From an uncultured Candidatus Peribacteria bacterium (GTDB taxonomy: Bacteria > Patescibacteriota > Gracilibacteria > Absconditabacterales > Absconditicoccaceae): a stretch of DNA of 37,355 bases. Positions within the stretch are counted from its first letter, which is position 1. Each line of letters starts with the position of its first letter. The notes beneath the pieces were generated by a model. That model was given only the letters and a program-made list of their open reading frames with translations. It ran no database searches and was not told the DNA's origin. A program made the position numbers and the translations under genes. Below are positions 6,518-18,450 of the stretch, one piece after another. The stretch covers positions 1 through 37,355 of the forward strand of contig CAYSXV010000004.1 of NCBI GenBank assembly GCA_964435215.1, written 5' to 3'.

Positions 6518-7942
6518 CTATGCTTTTTTTTCTTTGAGTAGAGCAGCTGTGGCTGCGTTACAGAATTCTTCCGAATAGCGGTTACTTTCTATTTGTTTTA
6601 GTAAGGCTGATTGGGAAGCAAATGGACACATCTCAACAAGAATCCTTAGATGATGAACTTTGAGAAAGATTTCATCTATTGAGTTTTGTGAGAGTTTGGG
6701 AATAATAGATAACATTGTTTGATAGTCATCACCAATCTTATTGGCAATTGAGATCAAATTGTTTTGTTCTTCCAGATAGATAGATGCGGCTCTGCATAAC
6801 CCTTCCGGATATTTTTTTTGTTTGAGAATTTCCATGATCTCTACATCAGTTTTCTTTTCGAAATGTAGATATGGAAGTACTTTGGAGCAAAAACCATCAT
6901 CGTATTTTGCCTTTTCCATCAATTCCCAAAGTCCAGGTTCGTCTCTCTTTTTGAGATTGAGTTCTTTGATTGCGATTTTTAGTGCATCATTACTGAAAAA
7001 GTTTTTTCCCAGGACAAAGATAATATTGTCGTCATCCTTGAGAAATGGAATTGCCTTTGGGCAAATACCACTCATGTAGTGATGCTTTTCCAGTAGAGCT
7101 AAGATATCTTCATCCTTTTTACATATGGGGAAGAGAACTTCGCAGGTACTGAAATTATTTTGGCAGGTTTCAAATGCTAACCACATGTTAGCTTTTTGTT
7201 TTAAGGTTGGAACAACGATATTGGCAACGAATGGATGATAGTTTGACTTCTTCATAAGTGTCATCTTTGTTTTTTCATCCGTTATCATAGGAATTCCGTT
7301 GATACATGTTTTGAGATCAAACTTTGATCCTACGATTACTTCCATGATTTCTTTCTTTTTTTTGAGCCGGAGGACTCCGATTTCAGAAATATGATCACGA
7401 TAATTAAATCGTTGCATAACCTTGAGTGCGTTACTGGCAGATAAGTAGGGTATAAGTAAACGACAAATCGTCCAGTTGTAAACTGAATTTTGTACAAGTG
7501 CCCAGCGCCATGATTCTTTTTTTTCTGAGATTTTGAGCAGGGGAATGATAGCATCGCACATGTGAAATCCATACTTTGATTGTTCCATGATTTCTAACAA
7601 TTCCAGTTCTGTTTTGGTCTCCAGTCTGAAAAATGGAATCATATAATGGCAGACAATATCATCGTAACCGCTCTGTTTGATAAGAGCTATTAATTCTTTG
7701 TCTGTCTTGGCTGTGAGAGTGATCCGAGATAGCAACAAAGGTAATAAATCAGAGGAATGACTAGCTTTGGCAATAGGATATAATAAACCCTCAAAACTGT
7801 TTTGTTCCTTGAGTAATGAGATACCCAATCTACATACCTCCACTTCATACTTTGATTGCTCCATAATATTAAGAACTGTTTTTTCAGCGACCGTAATCTT
7901 CTGAGAAATACAAGCTCTAAAAAATCCTGATAAGTGTTTCAT
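6518..7942 (-). CDS. 474-aa alpha-helical repeat protein of unknown family. It is TGA-free and is the last gene of the RT cluster.
   Basis: Uninterrupted ORF with no TGA in 474 codons; all 14 Gly are GGN. About 12 degenerate repeats of roughly 38-42 aa share the pattern hhxhMxxSKYxxxxCxxhhPhLK (for example IMEQSKYEVEVCRLGISLLK, IMEQSKYGFHMCDAIIPLLK, LMEKAKYDDGFCSKVLPYLH). It looks GC-richer than its surroundings. AAGG lies 3 nt upstream of the ATG. Confidence 0.8.
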   Translation of the reverse strand: MKHLSGFFRACISQKITVAEKTVLNIMEQSKYEVEVCRLGISLLKEQNSFEGLLYPIAKASHSSDLLPLLLSRITLTAKTDKELIALIKQSGYDDIVCHYMIPFFRLETKTELELLEIMEQSKYGFHMCDAIIPLLKISEKKESWRWALVQNSVYNWTICRLLIPYLSASNALKVMQRFNYRDHISEIGVLRLKKKKEIMEVIVGSKFDLKTCINGIPMITDEKTKMTLMKKSNYHPFVANIVVPTLKQKANMWLAFETCQNNFSTCEVLFPICKKDEDILALLEKHHYMSGICPKAIPFLKDDDNIIFVLGKNFFSNDALKIAIKELNLKKRDEPGLWELMEKAKYDDGFCSKVLPYLHFEKKTDVEIMEILKQKKYPEGLCRAASIYLEEQNNLISIANKIGDDYQTMLSIIPKLSQNSIDEIFLKVHHLRILVEMCPFASQSALLKQIESNRYSEEFCNAATAALLKEKKA

Positions 7943-8052
7943 AGCCTTATTTGTTTTAGTTATTGATTGTGTTTTTATTATTGTTGGTTTTGTATTTTAT
8001 TAAGTATTACAATATAGATAAGAAAAATAATATCAAGAATAATGTTTTTTTA

Positions 8053-8331
8053 AAAAAATGCCCTGAATAAAAATCCAGGACATAAGTGGTATGGGCAAGT
8101 AAGGTTCCTGTCAGAAATGTAACCTTATTTATAAGGTTATAAATAAGACTGATTTTTATTGATATTCAACTGAATATCTTTTTCTGTCGGAACTTGTCGG
8201 AAATGTAAGGTTACATAAATATCACTTCCTCTTGTCCTAATCATAAATACCTCGTCTCGCAATATGCGGGGACTTTCAAAAGACAAAGCTTTAACCGGCA
8301 TTTAACGTGCAAAATACGCACGGCTTTTTTT
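8053..8331 (-). ncRNA. Structured RNA, paralog 0 of the RT-associated RNA family (diverged copy between the vWA gene and the 474-aa gene)
   Basis: It shares the 20-nt core GTCTCGCAATATGCGGGGAC (8254-8273, + strand notation) with the copies at 15237-15256 and 15559-15578. It also has the same closing stem, AAGTGG(TAT) at 8084-8092 against (ATAT)CACTT at 8219-8227. The two upstream hairpins are replaced by different sequences that still form hairpins (CGTGC..GCACG at 8307-8323; CTTT..AAAG). Confidence 0.55.
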
Positions 8332-10665
8332 TTATTTCTGTTTAAATATTTTTCATTGCATTGCGATAAAATAATCTCTTAACCTTTCTTTTCATTTAGT
8401 CATAATTTCTCAAGCATTATCCAAAAATAATTTCCATTCTGAAGTAAATATTTCAGAAAAATATTCTTTTTCAAAGTCTTGTAATCATAATCATACAAGG
8501 ATATCATTTCAATCAAATCTTTCAGCGACTTCTTTTAGTTCGTCTCAGTCTTTTCATTTATTTGGTTGGCCATCAGTAATAATAATAGGCATAAGTAATA
8601 TATCACGATTTTTTACAAAAAATTCATCTCATTTTTCGAGAATATCTTCTAATCATGATGCAATATCTGTCCTACTTTGTAAATTACTTAACATTCTACT
8701 TATTATTCATTTATTTGAATAATATTGGTCATCAAAAGATTTAATTGAAGTAACTTTTGCTCAAAATGTATTTATATAAAATGGTATTCATAATCTCTCA
8801 CAAAATAATGACATAAAGATTGCAAATGCTAATACTTCAAGAGCGACATCAGACATAGAACCACTAACGTCGATACTTAATGACATTCATAATTGTATAC
8901 GTACAGAATTTTCTTCATCTTCTCTACCATATACATCGTAATGTCACATTTTTATTTTTCTTCATGCTCAAATAATATTATATATTTTACCAGAAAAATA
9001 ATCACCATCTATAGTAATATCTTTTAATTTTGGAATATCATTCATAAGATCTTGTATAAACTCTTCTACTAATGGAGCTATTCTCTGTTCTATAACCTGA
9101 TATTTTTGATAATCATATTCTTGATCTTCAGAGAATCATTGTTCTTTCATCTCTTCTAAAAATCTTTTTCTTTTTTCCAAAAGCATTTTTTTTCTATTCT
9201 GTATCATTTCTTCAGCGGCTTTTCTATTTTTATTTGTCTTTATATTTCATGCTTTTCACTCTTGTTCTTCAAGTTTTTTCCAATCTTTATAATCAAAATC
9301 TTTTATAGTCGATGCAATATCATCAACAGCTTTTTTATCTTTATGAAATTGTTTGATCATATCTTCAATCCTTTTTTGTAGATTATCATCTGGGATTTCT
9401 GATCAAGGTTCTTTATCTTTTCAAGTAGGTTTTTTACTAGATGGAACAATATTTCATTCATCATCAGTATCCCAATCAAATTGAGGCATAGATTTTTTGA
9501 CTTCTTTGAGACCATCATTATCTATTTTTTTCTTTGCACGATCTATGTATGGTTGTTTCTCTTCAGGAGAATTATTTTTCCGCTCTTCATCAATTTTACG
9601 TTGAACTCATTTTTTTTCTATAGGTGTTAAATCTTTGTTGTTGGGCACGTCATCTAGAGAATCCAAAAGATCATCTAAAACTGAATTTCATCATGGTTGA
9701 GATGAATTGGATCATGGGTTGGGTTCAGATTTATTATTTTTTTTTCATTTTTTTGATTTTGATTGAATTAATTTTTTTAATTCTTCTAAATATTTCATAA
9801 GTTTTGCTTGATCATCAACATCTTTTTTAAGAATATCTTCAAGTATAGGCCAAAAGGTAATATTTTTTATTCATATTCTTTTATCGTTATCCATACTGAT
9901 ATCAGCAATCTGTTGTAGATATGGTTTAGCATTTTCTAAATGGATTTTCACTTCATCTGTAATATCTACTTTTACGTTATAATCATTTGGAAAATAATTA
10001 TTTAAATAATAATAAATAACAGCTATTTCAAATTGTTTGATTCTAGGTAGATGCTGAGCAGAAAGTACTCATGTAGAAAATGGTGCTTGTATGTGTCTAT
10101 AAAGCATCTTTATACCATTTTTTCTAACGGCATTTGTTTTTGCTCTCATAGAGTTGATGTAAAAATCTTCTACAACATTAAAAAACCTATGAATAGGAGA
10201 AGATGGAAGTTGTTTGTGATATGCTATCCTATTGCATCTTACAACGTCTTTGAAATCAGATGATAGTGCGTGTTGCATTTCATGTCATTGTACTTCACGC
10301 AATAATTGATCATCTAATTGTAACATCATAGAAAGACTATAGTAGAGATATTTGGGTTCAAAAAGCTCTTCAGGAATTTTTTTAATAGAATAATTTCAGT
10401 TCATATATCATGGAATATATTCATCGATCTCTTCTCCCAATCAACAAGCAAAAGTATCTCAGTCCTTTAATGGTCTAAGAGTAAGCTTTTTGGGGGATAT
10501 ACTGATGAGATATTCTAAATATTCCAACTTGTTTTCTACTAGAGTTTCCAATGCTTCATCAGAAATTTCATCTCAATCAAATAATTGTTTAGCTAAATAA
10601 GCATTGGACAAATTGGGCTCAGTATAATCCGCATATTGAAGTACATCAAATGTTTTGTTTTTCAT
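8332..10665 (-). CDS. HExxH metallopeptidase-like plus von Willebrand factor A (MIDAS) domain protein, 777 aa (resembles the DUF2201_N/DUF2201 partners of MoxR ATPases)
   Basis: The table-25 frame was checked codon by codon and has no TAA/TAG. HEMQH lies at 10270-10284. A charged Lys/Glu/Asp-rich linker follows. The C-terminal vWA domain has the MIDAS motif DVSGSMS (8851-8871) and IIITDGQPN. Its ATG (10663-10665) is 2 nt after the stop of the AAA gene. Confidence 0.8.
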
Positions 10666-10667
10666 TT

Positions 10668-13346
10668 TTATGTATTTGGAGTCTGATTAAAGAGTGTTTC
10701 TAATTTTAGATTTTTATTTGTTCAATAATTTTTTACTTCTTCAAGAACTGTTTCTCTTGATAGAGTTTTTAAATCATTTTTTATAGTTTCTCTATCAGAT
10801 AGAGAGGGGATAGAGTTTATATAAACTTCGATAAACGCCTTTTCAGGAGTATATCATAAACAAAGTAAATATAGCATTTTATTTAAATCTCTTTGTGAAA
10901 CAGAAGATGTTATCTTGCTTGATCTATCTATACCAGTCATTTTCTGGATATATTTACTGCGGAAATAATGAGCATACAAAAGTATTTCATTTATAGATTC
11001 GATTCATTTAATAAATTCTGGATTATAAGAAGATGTCTGTTTTTTATTTATAATATCATTCCATACCTGGATAAATTCTCTATCAGAAAGATATGAATCT
11101 TGCATCTTTGATATTTTTTCTTTTTGATCTTCACGTAATCAGTTACCATTGTGTTCTCTGATAATATAATATTTGATTTCATCAACATCACTTTGTGTGA
11201 ATCCTTCCTTAGATAATAATTTATAAAAATAAGGTACATTTTTGTATGTCATCAAAGCTTCATCATAGTTAACTATATTGTCTGTTATCAGGCTAGGATA
11301 GTCAATAAATTGAAAAAACGCTCTGCTAGAAATTTCAGCTGATAAAACATTGTTTCATTTATATACGTGTGTATTTGGATTCATTGTACCAAATATAAGC
11401 ACACTTTCTTTTGCTTTTTTTGAAGTATCACTATGAGGGAAATATAATTTTCTTCTCATATCCAATAGAGAATTTAATAATTTTGCTACTTCAGGACGTA
11501 GACTGTTAATCTCATCAAGAACCAATATAGCTCATTCAGTTTCAATAGCTTTTACTACTTCAGAATTTAATTTATATGTACCATTTTTATCTATAAGCCA
11601 TAGGTATGTCATATCATCTTTAGTGGTTTTTTCATTACAAGCAAAATTGAATACTGGTCTACCAGTATAATGAGCAAAAATATCTATTGCTACATTTTTA
11701 CCTACACCAGCTTCTCATTCTAAGATACCAAATCAATCTTGAGTAAGTAATTGATACTCAGATAGATGTACTATTTTATGTAATATCTCCATCACTGATG
11801 GAGGAATAACTATTTTAGAATTTAATTCTGGTGCTTTTTTGAGAGCAGAAAACAATCATGGCATAGCATTTATTTTTCTGATAACTCTAAAATAATGAGG
11901 AATATTTTTTTCTATTTCATCTCTTACTTCATGTAAACGCATCTGTAATTCTTGATATTCTGCAGATTTTTTATCTTCAAAGCGAATCAAAGAATCTGTT
12001 AATCTCACTTCTTCAGCAAATAATTCATTACATTCTTGGGTTTTATGAAATGTTGTATATTCTTTCATCATCTTTTTATATTCTTCTTCAGTCATCTTAT
12101 ATGGATTTTCTGGTCTGATTTTTTTCTCATCAGAAGCTTTGATAATTTTTCAGGATTTGATATCTTTTATATTTAGATGTACATTATCATCTACAATTTC
12201 AGGTTCTGCTTTCCATAAACTATTTGGTTTGTATAAGAATCTAGGAAAAACTGCTGATCCAAAATGGACTTCATCTCATCTAACTTTTATTTTAGGGAGA
12301 TTGATCTGTAGTGTAAGTAATTGTTCTTTTTTAAGATCTTCAAGTATTCAAATTAAATAAGTTTTTTTATCCTCAGATAAAAAATTTAATAAAGATTTCC
12401 ATTGTTTAATAATATCTTTTTGTCAGTAAGCTTCCAATTCTTCCTTGCTATGTAATGTTTCGATATCTTCACTGATTACTGTATTTACAAAAATTTCACA
12501 TAGAGTATATATCTCTTTGGTATATGAATCTTTGACATCATCACAAAGTTTTATAAAAAATTTAGCTTCTTCTTCATCTCAAGCAAGCTCTTCATTTTTT
12601 TTATATATAACATCATTCATCTCATCAATCAAAATAGCTATGGGGACAAAAATATCTTTGGTCTTTTGAGCATGACGTAGTTCTTGCACGATACTGTGTT
12701 TTTTTTCATATACCTGTTTGAAATGATCTTGAATATAAGCATTACTAATCAATTCATGAGCGTATGTATAAGATTGGTCATCTAAATATCATTGCTCCAT
12801 AAAATATTTCAATTCTTTTTCGATATTTTTGGAATATTGATAATCGAGAGAAACATTGGAACATATATTTGTTGTCCATTTTAAAAGATTTTGTTGGAAT
12901 AAAGAACTAATAGTATTGCGTAATTGAGTTTTAAGAAAATCTTCTGCTTCAGGATCTCATGTAGCAAAATCATAGGAAATAAGATCATTTATATCATCAC
13001 GTAAAGATTTTTTATTATTTAATAAACTATCATACATATTATTTTCGAGTGAATTTTGTAGTGATTTCCAAGTCTTAGCTTTGGCTTTTTTATGCTGATT
13101 TAGCATGATTTTGATTAATTGAGGAAAAATATCAGTAATCAATTTACTAATCATTTCTTTTTCTTCTTGTGGAATATTGTCACGTGAAAGTGAATCCAAA
13201 AGCTGTTTCTGGACTTCTACTATCATATGTACATCAGCAAAACGATATTCGCCGATATCAGTATTTGATTTAATCTGACTTAATATTTTTGATATACGTG
13301 CCATACTCATGTTGTTGTCTTTTAAGAAATTAAATATTACATTCAC
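10668..13346 (-). CDS. Large MoxR/AAA_5-type AAA+ ATPase, 892 aa, with an uncharacterised helical N-terminal region of about 470 aa
   Basis: The table-25 frame was checked and is continuous. Walker A is GEAGVGKN (11694-11717). Walker B plus the AAA_5-like segment reads AILVLDEINSLRPEVAKLLNSLLDMRRK (about 11455-11538), followed by ...VLIFGTMNP. The ATG at 13344-13346 overlaps the RT stop by 10 nt. Confidence 0.8.
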
Positions 13347-14926
13347 ATATCAGCACCATTTACAATAGAGTAAGAATAATAATTTTTCTTAGCATTTATT
13401 TTTGGGAAATGTTGTTGTTTAGCTGATCGATAATATTTTTCAAATTCATCTGCGACATGTCATTTTAATACTTCACTAGGTCTATTTTCTAATCATTGTC
13501 ATTTTACATCGGCTATGAAACTTCTTATACCATTCAGAGTGTCTGCAAGTAGTAGACCATCAACTTTACCTGTTTTAGGATCTTTGAATTTAATAGGTAA
13601 ATTACTTGGAGCAGTAGCTGCTGTCCTAGCAAATCAAATATATCTTGTCATTTTTTCTTGTGATATTCATAGTCTTCAATCATGACCTATCATGATACCA
13701 TTTACTTCTCTTGCTGTAGAAGCATTACGTCATCGAGATTTACTTTTACTATGCTTTATCTTCCATCAATTATGATTAACTATAGTCTGGATCTCTTGTT
13801 GTAAAAAATCCATTCAATCTGTTCATGGAGTCATATTTACAAATTTTAAGTATCTATCTATTTCTCATATTATGTTGTATCTAGTTTGTTCGAAAACTTC
13901 TATATTATTAAATTGATTATTTGCTGCGTAATCTAATATCTTTTGTTTAATTTTAAGTAACAATGCTCTTACTCTTCATCTGTTATATTCATCATCAAAT
14001 ATTACAGGACATTTTACAAGTTCATTGATATCATTTGATATAGATTGTATCTGAAAAACTGATTCTAAACCACTTTCAGCTTTGTTACTAAAAGTACTTT
14101 CAAGTTTATTATTTGTCTGTATAAGTTGTTGTTCTATATTTATATAATTTTTAAAATCTTTGAAACTGATTGCTATATCATCTATATATCTACTATACAA
14201 TGCATCACTTACAGGTGAAGCTTGGTTATATAAAAATTTTAATATATCCTGATCTGTCTTTGCAAATACAATATTTAATATGCGTGAACTTGTAGGTGCT
14301 CACTGTGGTAATTCATCATTTAATGTAATCAGAACTGTAAGATAAACAAAAAATATTTTCTTTTGTTCTTCATTGAGATAGGGGAATGATAGTTCTAGAT
14401 TTTTGGACATAGCTGTAGAAAGATTTTTATATACTCTATATGCATTTACACTTGGATAAGCATTTTTGATATCAGTAGTATATAAATATTTATTTGGTCT
14501 ATGTAATAATGCATTCTTTTTTGGGCTTGTTCATTTTTCACCACCGACAGTAGCTATAGAAACAGGTACATTTCTAAGAACGTCCAATAAATTCTCTTGA
14601 ATCTGTTTTAAAGGATCGGCAGGAGCGTTTATTGTTCTATATTCTTTTCAATCAGCTTTAAGGATTTTAAATTGAAAATATCATTGAGAAACTTCTTCCT
14701 CTCTGCTGCTGTTTTTTAAGGTAACGGTAGCGAGTGATTTTTCTTTAAGTTTCAATTTAATAACATCGATAAGTGTAGTTATGCTGCAACCACAAAAGTG
14801 AGATAAGGCCTTTAAAATTTCCTTGTCTAGATTGTCTACTGACTTTCTCAGGATATCTTTTTGTTCTTCCAAAAAGTGTTGGTTCTTATCCAAAATTTCT
14901 GCATCTTTATTTTCGGGTGTATGCAT
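13337..14926 (-). CDS. Retron-type reverse transcriptase, 529 aa
   Basis: Manual table-25 translation shows YRTINAPADPLKQIQENLL (motif 1), SPKKNALLH (retron NAxxH region, 14501-14515), YLYTTDIKNAYPSV (motif 2), LPQGAPTSSRILN (motif 4), and YSRYIDDIAISF (YxDD, 14177-14188). REVNGIMIG sits at the position of the retron VTG motif. Stop is TAA at 13337-13339. Confidence 0.9.
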
Positions 14927-14958
14927 GGTTATATTAAATATATATAAATTTATATAAT

Positions 14959-14986
14959 CTTATAATTATTTACTAGTAAATGTCAA
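14959..14986 (-). promoter_or_regulatory. Promoter of the RT operon (TTGACA-N16-TATAAG), copy 1 of a triplicated promoter module
   Basis: On the minus strand, TTGACA is at 14986-14981 and TATAAG at 14964-14959. The block TATAATTATTTACTAGTAAATGTCAATA recurs at 15311-15338 and 15633-15660. Confidence 0.65.
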
Positions 14987-15011: not shown

Positions 15012-15303
15012 AAAAAAAGCCCCTGAATGGGGCAAGTGGTACAATGCTTGAGATAGGTCAACGGCAAATAAAGAGCAAATATAGAGCAAATTAAGAGCAA
15101 ATGAGGAGCAAGGAAATGTAGATATAACAAGGGTTATAGTGCTATCTGGAGATTTCTCTAGAGATTTCTCTAGATAGTTATCCGGAGTTATCTGAGTAAT
15201 ATTTCATTTCCACTTTATCTCAATCATCAATGTCTTGTCTCGCAATATGCGGGGACTTCAACAGGAAAGATCCTGTAACGACTAAGAAGGCGTAAGCCTC
15301 GGG
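15012..15303 (-). ncRNA. RT-associated structured RNA, paralog 1 (msr/msd-like candidate), with its own promoter and terminator
   Basis: A promoter sits at 15309-15336. The 5' scaffold of about 110 nt has three hairpins: GAGGC-UUAC-GCCUU, CAGG-AUCUUU-CCUG, and GUC..CGCA-UAU-UGCG..GAC. The closing stem AAGUGG/CCACUU (15211-15216 / 15034-15039) encloses an insert of about 170 nt. The terminator is GCCCC-loop-GGGGC (15019-15033) plus U7. Confidence 0.7.
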
Positions 15304-15308
15304 GACAA

Positions 15309-15336
15309 TATATAATTATTTACTATTAAATGTCAA
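15309..15336 (-). promoter_or_regulatory. Promoter of RNA paralog 1 (TTGACA-N16-TATATA)
   Basis: On the minus strand, TTGACA is at 15336-15331 and TATATA at 15314-15309. It lies immediately downstream of the paralog-2 terminator. Confidence 0.65.
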
Positions 15337-15343
15337 TAGAAGT

Positions 15344-15624
15344 AAAAAAAGAAAAAGCCCCTAAATGGGGCGAGTGGAAGCATGATTTAATAATGTGGTT
15401 TGTGGTGTTCCTTAGTTAGGAATTGAGTTAGGATTTTAGTACGTTGGTATTGAACGTTGCGAAATGTTGTTTCGCATTGCGAATATCAGTTTTCCCTAGT
15501 TATCCGTGGTTATCCCGATAGAATTACCTTTCCACTTTATCATAATCATCAATGTCTTGTCTCGCAATATGCGGGGACTCCAACAGGAAAGATCCTGTAA
15601 CGACTATGAAGGCATAAGCCTCGA
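15344..15624 (-). ncRNA. RT-associated structured RNA, paralog 2, with its own promoter and terminator
   Basis: Its scaffold and promoter are about 135 nt near-identical to paralog 1 (15527-15660 against 15196-15338). The insert (15380-15530) is completely different. The closing stem is AGUGGAA/UUCCACU. The terminator is GCCCC-loop-GGGGC (15357-15371) plus a U-run. Confidence 0.7.
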
Positions 15625-15630
15625 GGGCAA

Positions 15631-15658
15631 TATATAATTATTTACTAGTAAATGTCAA
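15631..15658 (-). promoter_or_regulatory. Promoter of RNA paralog 2 (TTGACA-N16-TATATA)
   Basis: On the minus strand, TTGACA is at 15658-15653 and TATATA at 15636-15631, about 12 nt after the helicase stop codon. Confidence 0.65.
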
Positions 15659-17521: not shown

Positions 17522-18283
17522 TTATTTTACCTCAATCAATCGTTCATTTGTTCTCATGAATGGAATAGTCCGAGGATCATTGTATTGATTTAAAATAGCT
17601 ACAGTATCTGTTGTAATATTTTGTTCTTTTAGTGCTTTTTGGAATATACTAAGTTGTTTATTTGCTCTGGACTCTTGCGCATATCGTGAAAATTTCCATA
17701 CATAATATTTTTTTGCTGGAAGTTCAACAAAAGTGATATTAGGATTGTTTGGTTTAGGTAAAGTTTCTATAGTATATTTGCTTGGCATAGTAAACGTAAT
17801 AAGATAACTATCGCCTTCTTTTTGTGTCCCCACAGGAGCAGTCATAGCAATAGTGCTATTTGTCTTTGTTACTCATACAGGAGCCGTCATGGCAATAGTG
17901 CTATTTGTCTTTGTTACTCATACAGGAGCCGTCATGGCAATAGTACTATTTGTTTTTGTTACTCATACAGGAGCAGTCATGGCAATTGTACTATTTGTTT
18001 TTGTAGTACCTACTGGAGCCGTCATAGCAACTGATGTCTTATTTGTATTTCATCAGAATATATATCACGCTAATTGACGGAATCAATCATTAAGAGCTTT
18101 ATTTTGTGAGCCTGTTACTGATACAACTGCTTGTATCATAGGTCCAATTTCACGCACTTCTATATTCCCAGTTATCATTGTGCTAGAAATAATTTTTGGT
18201 TTTTCGATGCTTCTTGTGCTAAAATATGACCAAGATACTCGTATCACTAATACGATAAATATAATTATAAGAACTATTTTCAT
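17522..18283 (-). CDS. SOUL haem-binding-family protein with an N-terminal signal/anchor and an internal 15-aa tandem repeat
   Basis: The sequence reads ...EKPKIISSTMITGNIEVREIGPMIQAVV...GFRQLAGYIFGGNTNK..., then five copies of (I)AMTAPVG.TKTNST, then ...YLITFTMPSKY...YNDPRTIPFMRTNERLIEV. A single table-25 frame links track ORFs 18083-18283 and 17522-17845. Confidence 0.8.
17832..18045. repeat. 45-bp tandem repeat, about 4.7 copies, in frame within the SOUL gene
   Basis: Units start at 17832, 17877, 17922, 17967 and 18012 (ACAGGAGC[AC]GTCATGGCAATAGTGCTATTTGTCTTTGTTACTCAT). There are only a few substitutions between units. Confidence 0.9.
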
Positions 18284-18450
18284 GGATATATAATAGATAA
18301 AAAAATATAATAAGATTTAACAATCAAATCAATATTTTAGTTTAGATTTAGAGAAAAGTTTTTCAAGTAGAAAAAATATTAATTAGAGTATAAATTTTAA
18401 TTTAAAAAAAAGGAAGATAAAAATCCTCCTATTGGCTACAAATTAATGTG

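Follow-up and report, generated by a model that had tools for sequence, protein, structure and literature searches.

In the 37,355 nt stretch of DNA analysed here, which we refer to as the window, a gene for a retron-type reverse transcriptase (RT) is directly preceded by two RNAs of a common type, A and B. A preliminary description of the sequence had proposed that a third, diverged member of the same family lies at the far end of the operon, between a gene for a vWA protein and a 474-aa gene. Is this third stretch a functional RNA gene that serves the RT, or is it what remains of a duplication? On the evidence set out below, we think it probable that 8050-8331 on the minus strand is a working gene, the third, C-type member of an RNA family serving the retron-type RT.

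Reading the locus depends on the genetic code of its host. The 37-kb window (G+C ~28%) holds only seven ORFs of at least 100 aa when the standard bacterial code is applied; with TGA read as a sense codon, the total length in open frames grows from 7 kb to 50 kb. Assigning TGA to Trp would put 'W' at 5-7% of residues. Because a motif that is universal across the RT family, LPQG, appears as LPQ-TGA-APTS in part of the family and as LPQGAPTS in other members, we conclude that TGA encodes Gly in the window. Gly-reading TGA is code 25, in use by Gracilibacteria and Absconditabacteria. Tools that apply table 11 break up the genes of the window at this sense codon.

With TGA read as Gly, the minus strand carries in order ncRNA B (15625-15350; 15350-15658 with its promoter), ncRNA A (15303-15012; 15012-15336 with its promoter), the RT of 529 aa (13337-14926), an 880-aa MoxR-type AAA+ ATPase of the AAA_5 type (10668-13310), a 777-aa CobT-like vWA protein (8332-10665) and the C-type ncRNA, ncRNA C (8050-8331). 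The same strand and code give a PIF1 helicase gene at 17052-15670 and the 474-aa ORF at 6518-7942. Both A and B possess a TTGACA-N18-TATATT promoter (15336-15307 for A, 15658-15629 for B) and a GCCCC..GGGGC-T terminator (15033-15019 and 15371-15357, respectively). A promoter of the same type, TTGACA-N18-TAAGAT, is found directly 5' of the RT start (14957-14986, minus strand), and the RT operon and both upstream RNAs thus each have their own near-identical promoter (ATTGACATTTANTAGTAAATAATTATA). Elsewhere on this strand, a predicted protein of 265 aa (17522-18316) contains 4-5 tandem copies of a 15-aa unit (TNSTIAMTAPVGVTK).

By sequence comparison, the RT is of retron type and does not group with the UG/DRT families. 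The best 25 RT matches listed by PADLOC were all to retron RT models (5.5e-35 to 1e-20), the best being RT_VI at 5.5e-35, and all 12 of 12 matches in the PDB were retron RTs. The NAxxH, YIDD and VTG-like motifs are conserved, with N138 and H142 invariant; at the VTG position, the clade of the window has VNG and relatives have ITG (or ITW, in which W is a TGA codon). The protein has an extra C-terminal region of ~200 aa. An AlphaFold model of the RT made with 12 sequences reached a pLDDT of 63, with a disordered catalytic core, and is too poor to be informative.

The 880-aa protein matches Pfam AAA_5 at 7e-23, and its matches in the PDB are midasin, CbbQ and NorQ. The 777-aa protein had no direct Pfam match, and its assignment as a vWA protein is transitive: an exhaustive HMMER search found 61 relatives in 1.84 billion representatives, of which P0038 (above the gathering score) and P0048 match Pfam VWA and CobT_C, and P0042 matches CobT_C. 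The 777-aa protein has DVSGSM and TDG motifs, and is arranged as an N-terminal region, a charged linker and a C-terminal vWA domain with the MIDAS-like DVSGSM motif. Its N-terminal third, ahead of the charged linker and vWA domain, bears an HExxH motif (QGHEMQHAL), which could mark a zinc-metallopeptidase-like domain; this region matched no family. PADLOC gave no meaningful match for the AAA or the vWA protein.

The identity of ncRNA C was assessed first at the level of primary sequence. The 20-mer core GTCTCGCAATATGCGGGGAC, said in the preliminary description to be identical in the three RNAs, occurs exactly at 8254-8273, 15237-15256 and 15559-15578; these are the only three occurrences in the window, and dinucleotide shuffles contained none. 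Sequence similarity of C to A and B extends over ~50 nt around the 20-mer (TTGAAAGTCCCCGCATATTGCGAGACGAGGTATTTATGATTAGGACAAG). Within the window, the only matches of a covariance model built from 14 copies were A, B and C (E 1e-20 to 1e-25), in agreement with a third diverged paralog between the vWA and 474-aa genes, and model R1 scored the C copy at 90.2 bits (E=4.6e-20). Rfam showed no match at the three RNAs at E values up to 1. The folding energy of each of the three is below that of its own shuffles, with z scores of -2.7 to -4.0.

The first base of the C-type RNA adjoins the vWA stop codon (TAA at 8334-8332), and we detected no promoter before it of the 11/12 quality seen for A and B, as had been proposed. 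From 5' to 3', the RNA at 8050-8331 consists of a scaffold, an insert, the sequence CCACUU and a terminator, the last being a terminator-like hairpin, AUGUCCUGGAUUUUUAUUCAGGGCAU, with a T-run at 8052-8083. All positions given for this RNA are on the minus strand.

The relationship of the three RNAs is also seen in their structure. We aligned 14 scaffolds and derived a common fold from the RNAalifold consensus and pair counts. This structural alignment showed a consistent, covarying fold that extends beyond the 20-mer: 95.9% of cells were paired, as against 29-47% in slid controls (partners moved by 1-3 columns), seven pairs had changed on both sides, and the observed covariation score was reached by no shuffle. 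It should be noted that most of the both-side changes separate C-type from A/B-type copies, and the independent evolutionary events are therefore few. All copies share a 5' scaffold, in which stem P2 encloses hairpin HP2 and the invariant core hairpin, followed by a G-rich AAGUGG-like element, a stem-closed variable insert of 120-200 nt, CCACUU and a terminator.

The strongest compensatory signal is that of P2, a stem which the preliminary description had not named. In the C-type RNA, its strands are UAAAUGCC (8297-8304) and GGUAUUUA (8244-8251); the upstream copies pair AGUC with GACU, whereas C pairs UGCC with GGUA, and additional pairs are UCA/UGA in A and B and UAA/UUA in C. HP2 (AAAG-CUUUGU-CUUU, 8279-8292) behaves as had been suggested, with CAGG/CCUG of A and B replaced by AAAG/CUUU in C and two pairs changed on both sides. 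The core hairpin GUCCCCGCAUAUUGCGAGAC (8254-8273) is exact in all three window copies, and its variants in the related loci L001 and L002 stay paired through G-U pairs. A second proposed replacement did not hold. The CGUGC..GCACG hairpin (CGUGCGUAUUUUGCACG, 8306-8322) exists, but it is found in the window only, inside a window-specific insertion (GTGCGTATTTTGCAC in place of AAAT), and since four orthologous C-type copies (from L001 and L251) read AAAT there, it is not a conserved element. By eye, most other copies have some hairpin at this first position, of unrelated sequence.

The closing stem, described earlier as preserved, is present in C but in another register. Its strands are AAGUGAUAU (8227-8219) and AUACCACUU (8092-8084), which pair at 8/9 positions and are shifted by 6 nt relative to the orthologs. 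In these, the 5' strand is AAGUGG and lies 6 nt farther upstream, where the window reads AAGAGG (within 8228-8237); the U has mutated, and pairing is regained through a new AAGUG located 6 nt downstream. Both versions of the stem are found in L251. The block at 8219-8237 thus reads GGACAAGAGG then AAGUGAUAU, comprising the mutated AAGUGG and the shifted 5' strand, and corresponds to AAGTGGAAATGAC or AAGTGGAAGTGAC in orthologs; being G-rich, it is a candidate priming site. The 3' strand, CCACUU, was placed at 8084-8089 from the coordinates and the comparison of C-type copies. In all copies, distant ones included, the 5' strand of the stem is followed by a G-rich element (GUGG, GGGG). In A/B-type copies, a longer stem, P3, can be seen by eye just outside AAGUGG, for example UGAUGAUUGAGAUA/UAUCUCAAGCAUUG in A and GAUGAUAAGAAUAAUG/CAUUAUUACUUAUC in copy 2 of L002. 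With a G-rich site after it, P3 looks like the a1/a2 of retrons. Cognate P3 strands pair with only a modest advantage over non-cognate ones (-11.6 vs -8.9 kcal/mol), and P3 duplex energy did not separate from shuffles; for both reasons we regard P3 as no more than a plausible stem.

Relatives of this RT are rare, with ~12 in 5.8 billion proteins. The RT-AAA_5-vWA operon is common to the window, L001 (RT protein 85-88% identical, RT gene DNA 88%) and L251/L132. Both L001 and L251/L132 have three A/B-type RNAs 5' of the RT and two C-type RNAs 3' of the vWA gene. In L001 and L251, the first C-type copy adjoins the vWA stop codon, as in the window, and the second has its own TTGACA promoter. The shared site indicates that the position of the C-type RNA is ancestral to the clade, and the absence of a promoter from the first copy in all three genomes fits co-transcription with the operon. 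L002, with an RT 73% identical, has three upstream RNA copies before the contig ends.

These orthologs bear directly on the possibility that 8050-8331 is a decaying, functionless duplicate. Such decay would account for the lack of an own promoter, for the mutation of AAGUGG to AAGAGG and for an 11-nt net insertion. However, the C copy is 92.6% identical to copy 4 of L001 outside one indel, which is above the neighbouring coding DNA (the RT, AAA, vWA and PIF1 genes are 86-89% identical between the window and L001, and the A/B orthologs 77-79%), and it occupies the same site in three genomes. Furthermore, its compensatory changes keep pairing and its terminator is intact. We therefore hold decay to be most improbable. 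The earlier proposal of a functional, diverged third paralog with retained structure gains from the same observations: the conserved site in L001 and L251, identity of 92.6% as compared with 86-88%, and the fold. From these comparisons, ncRNA C appears to be a genuine, selected third RNA of template type in a retron variant.

Comparison with the relatives also shows that the window has lost its second C-type copy. A promoter remnant at 8009-8037 (minus strand), alignable with the promoter that precedes the second C-type copy in L001 and L251, is now positioned 5' of the 474-aa ORF. This ORF occupies the site of the second C-type RNA of the relatives and is missing in L001 and L251. The predicted product has Cys-containing repeats of ~45 aa; the ORF has no in-frame TGA and a G+C content of 35%, and it matched nothing in Pfam, NCBIfam or PADLOC.

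The AAA-vWA pair does not accompany the more distant relatives of the RT (33-42% identical). Their loci carry promoter- and terminator-bounded RNAs 5' of the RT, the exceptions being the short fragments L006 and L008. In the RNAs of L009 (5024-5352), L003 (9660-9985), L004 (9697-10060), L007 (7635-8440) and L005 (9596-9985), the core hairpin can be recognised (GUCUUAGC..GCCAGAC GAGA) and the cassettes are longer, an example being the GTGTCACA and TTGCACGGTGCAA arrays of L005; among these RNAs, the covariance model reaches only that of L004 (E=0.0012). In L003, two more TTGACA-promoter/terminator units (8535-9570), one with a called 41-aa ORF, lie 5' of the recognisable RNA, and neither matched the scaffold model. 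In place of the AAA-vWA pair, a conserved TrmB-like HTH gene, 40-43% identical between loci, is found upstream of the RT in L003, L004, L009 and L010, beside large genes that are dissimilar between these loci.

Wider searches added little to this set. A scan of the species genome collection with the RT protein gave no confirmed relative, and word-based homolog searches with the vWA and AAA proteins returned close relatives only. In the genome and metagenome collections, a degenerate core pattern, GTCNNNGCANATTGNGAGAC (15 specified bases), proved insufficiently specific and produced chance matches; among the matches listed, only L132 was genuine. The core motif was not found in viral contigs, and the RTs of viral contigs are only 31-33% identical.

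If the scaffold is what the RNAs have in common, the insert is what sets them apart. The insert of C (8100-8218) is made up of palindromes and a direct repeat: the palindrome ATGTAACCTTACAT at 8203-8216, the direct repeat TTCCGACA-AG-TTCCGACA at 8185-8202, the palindrome GATATTCA-GT-TGAATATC at 8161-8178 and the palindrome AACCTTATAAATAAGGTT at 8121-8138. Three insert hairpins, with one G-C to A-U swap, are kept in five C-type copies along with the AAGUGG/CCACUU stem. The insert had been called unique, which is true within the window; near-identical orthologs exist elsewhere, and all inserts share a motif grammar. In 18/18 inserts examined, direct 7-mer repeats are more numerous than the mean of the shuffles, at distances of 10 (73 cases), 11 (49), 12 (22) or 20-22 nt (61) and hardly any others. 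The words GGATAAC, GGGAAAAC, GTTAGCA, TTCGCAATGCGAA and ATGTAA(C/G)CTTACAT recur between loci in varying order and orientation, and two C-type paralogs have, at the same place, TCCGACA twice and the near-complement TGTCGAA twice. No motif pairs were found outside the RNAs in ~150 kb of related genomic DNA, and this absence means that no cognate binding protein is indicated.

The composition of the inserts allows several readings, of which one is that the RNAs are never reverse-transcribed and act as RNAs, for instance as protein sponges or as regulators of the RT-AAA-vWA operon, with the repeated words, many of which contain GGA, serving as protein-binding sites in RNA. We count for this the strong promoter, terminator and stable fold of each RNA, and the occurrence of GGAUAAC and GGGAAAAC in RNA sense within the clade of the window. 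The words are reversed, however, in L009, L003 and L007 and in the second relative to the first C-type copy, which argues against any reading tied to one RNA strand; the spacing of 10-12 nt suits a double helix, and the RNAs are found with a retron-type RT in every case, over a range of 33-88% RT identity. A role as RNA alone consequently seems unlikely to us.

The same orientation-independence and helical-period spacing, reminiscent of iterons, would suit repeat cassettes that act as an array of binding sites in double-stranded genomic DNA, for titration or in an origin-like capacity, the transcripts being incidental. Yet the cassettes always stand between a covarying 5' scaffold and a terminator, with near-consensus promoters and beside an RT, and the contigs carry ordinary chromosomal genes, so that we judge this very unlikely.

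A third reading starts from the repeats themselves: in every module, 2-5 units are directly repeated at a period of 10-12 nt, as realignment needs, and the inserts could be slippage templates on which the RT realigns at a neighbouring repeat to make long tandem DNA, in the manner of telomerase or DRT-type RTs. Repetitive cDNA products have been described for the DRT3 system, which we count in favour. A single template of 1.5 repeats would be expected, in contrast to the several different modules and palindromes of each insert, and the RT groups with retrons and not with the UG/DRT families; we find slippage quite doubtful. Two further candidates were rejected. For a diversity-generating retroelement (DGR), blastn-short of the three inserts against the window returned self matches, internal palindromes and chance matches of 11-15 nt. 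A DRT2-like coding concatemer was excluded since no stop-free frame is kept: stops occur in all six frames in window C, L001c2, L001c3, L001c4, L003c3 and L004.

The insert words also occur in viruses. Phage and giant-virus contigs bear 3-7 copies of TTCCGACA, (T)GGATAAC or GGGAAAAC with a period of 10-11 bp (e.g. L357-L362, L363, L371, L393 and L409; L257, L259 and L307; L542, L599 and L602), and in a widespread human-associated viral group two copies of TTGTAGGA adjoin four of TTCCGACA. The array-bearing contigs are unrelated, with G+C contents of 23-69%. In a test based on 10-bp-spaced word pairs, with two scrambled control words as the only comparison, the share of distinct viral contexts with at least three copies was 38% for TTCCGACA, 24% for GGATAAC and 36% for GGGAAAAC, and 5% for each scrambled control. 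With two controls, we regard these iteron-like viral arrays as suggestive. A literature search on the TTCCGACA word gave nothing informative.

How does the locus compare with known systems? Its best reading, in our assessment, is a multi-template retron variant. The order of elements in canonical retrons is a1, priming G, msr, msd, a2. In common with retrons, the locus has the RT hallmarks, with only retron RTs as relatives in the PDB and among the best 25 matches listed by PADLOC; structured ncRNAs beside the RT on the same strand, A and B directly upstream; a stem that closes the variable region, followed by a G-rich element; and accessory genes, presumably co-transcribed and swapped modularly among RT relatives. 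The C copy is atypical, being on the same strand but downstream of two accessory genes. The locus differs from retrons in having up to five separately encoded ncRNAs instead of one, with one ncRNA class at the 3' end of the operon, in a scaffold that lies 5' of the closing stem and not between priming G and msd, in inserts that are repeat cassettes and not one long hairpin, in the ~200 extra RT residues and in a host that reads TGA as Gly. Retrons, composed of an RT, an msr-msd ncRNA and an effector, have been classified into types I-XIII (Mestre et al. 2020, PMC7736814); that classification mentions none of vWA, von Willebrand, MoxR or AAA_5, and the MoxR/AAA_5 and vWA effector pair belongs to none of its 13 types.

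The type VI match of the RT invites comparison with Retron-Vpa2, a type VI retron with a hybrid RNA in which template and coding sequence are reported to share one transcript (bioRxiv 10.1101/2025.10.22.683967). A promoter-less C-type copy would similarly share the operon mRNA. In that account a small toxin gene lies 3' of the template, whereas here the template would follow three large genes, and no HTH/small-protein pair was found in the window. The effector genes resemble the MoxR-vWA pairs NorQ/NorD, CbbQ/CbbO and CobS/CobT, in which an AAA_5 ATPase is followed by a protein with a MIDAS-like vWA domain. Such pairs have been proposed as thresholding modules in conflict systems, some of them RT-linked (Kaur et al. 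2020, PMC7159879). The RTs concerned are those of target-mutating diversity-generating retroelements, in contrast to the retron-type RT of this locus, and the window contains no variable-repeat copy of any insert. Like the Class 2 defence-associated RTs DRT2, DRT9 and DRT3b, the locus has a structured ncRNA beside the RT and a short, putative template region flanked by scaffold; it differs in an RT outside the UG/DRT families, in the lack of a conserved stop-free frame and in heterogeneous insert cassettes. Finally, engineered retron arrays and protein-binding retron DNA (PMC10370050; bioRxiv 10.1101/2023.09.27.556556) are likewise reported to combine several templates per RT with binding-site DNA. 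Those are laboratory constructs, of which the present locus would be a natural counterpart.

For a multi-template retron variant, we propose that the RT would bind the scaffold as its handle and use the insert as template for multicopy DNA, with priming, as in retrons, near the G-rich element 3' of the stem. Transcription through RT, AAA and vWA would yield the first C-type copy as the 3' end of the operon RNA, and this copy would act either in place or after processing. More speculatively, the DNA products or RNA-DNA hybrids may be baits for incoming DNA-binding proteins, a role suggested by inserts that consist of palindromes and direct repeats at 10-12 nt and whose words appear in iteron-like arrays of phages. 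The MoxR-vWA pair might then provide a gated output, and several RNAs might broaden the range of baits. Taken as a whole, this would be a natural multi-bait retron, in which one RT and up to five template RNAs yield phage-iteron-like decoys that signal to the MoxR-vWA pair when foreign DNA-binding proteins arrive, be they replication initiators, regulators or others; we put it forward tentatively, as a possibility well short of even.

To our knowledge, described retrons combine one RT with one template RNA, and the sensed target of the retron DNA product is known for few retrons only. The family described here appears to pair one retron-type RT with several distinct RNAs, each under its own promoter, whose variable parts are binding-site-like cassettes. 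Should the RNAs be copied into DNA, the insert sequences would hint at the target, and the sensing step of retrons would become directly testable. The locus would also bring a new accessory module, a MoxR ATPase with a vWA protein, and a new host group to retrons, and its naturally multiplexed scaffold is of interest for the engineering of retron arrays. If the proposed multi-bait function proves true, a bacterium with a reduced genome and with TGA read as Gly would possess, in these RNAs, a germline-encoded panel for pattern recognition.
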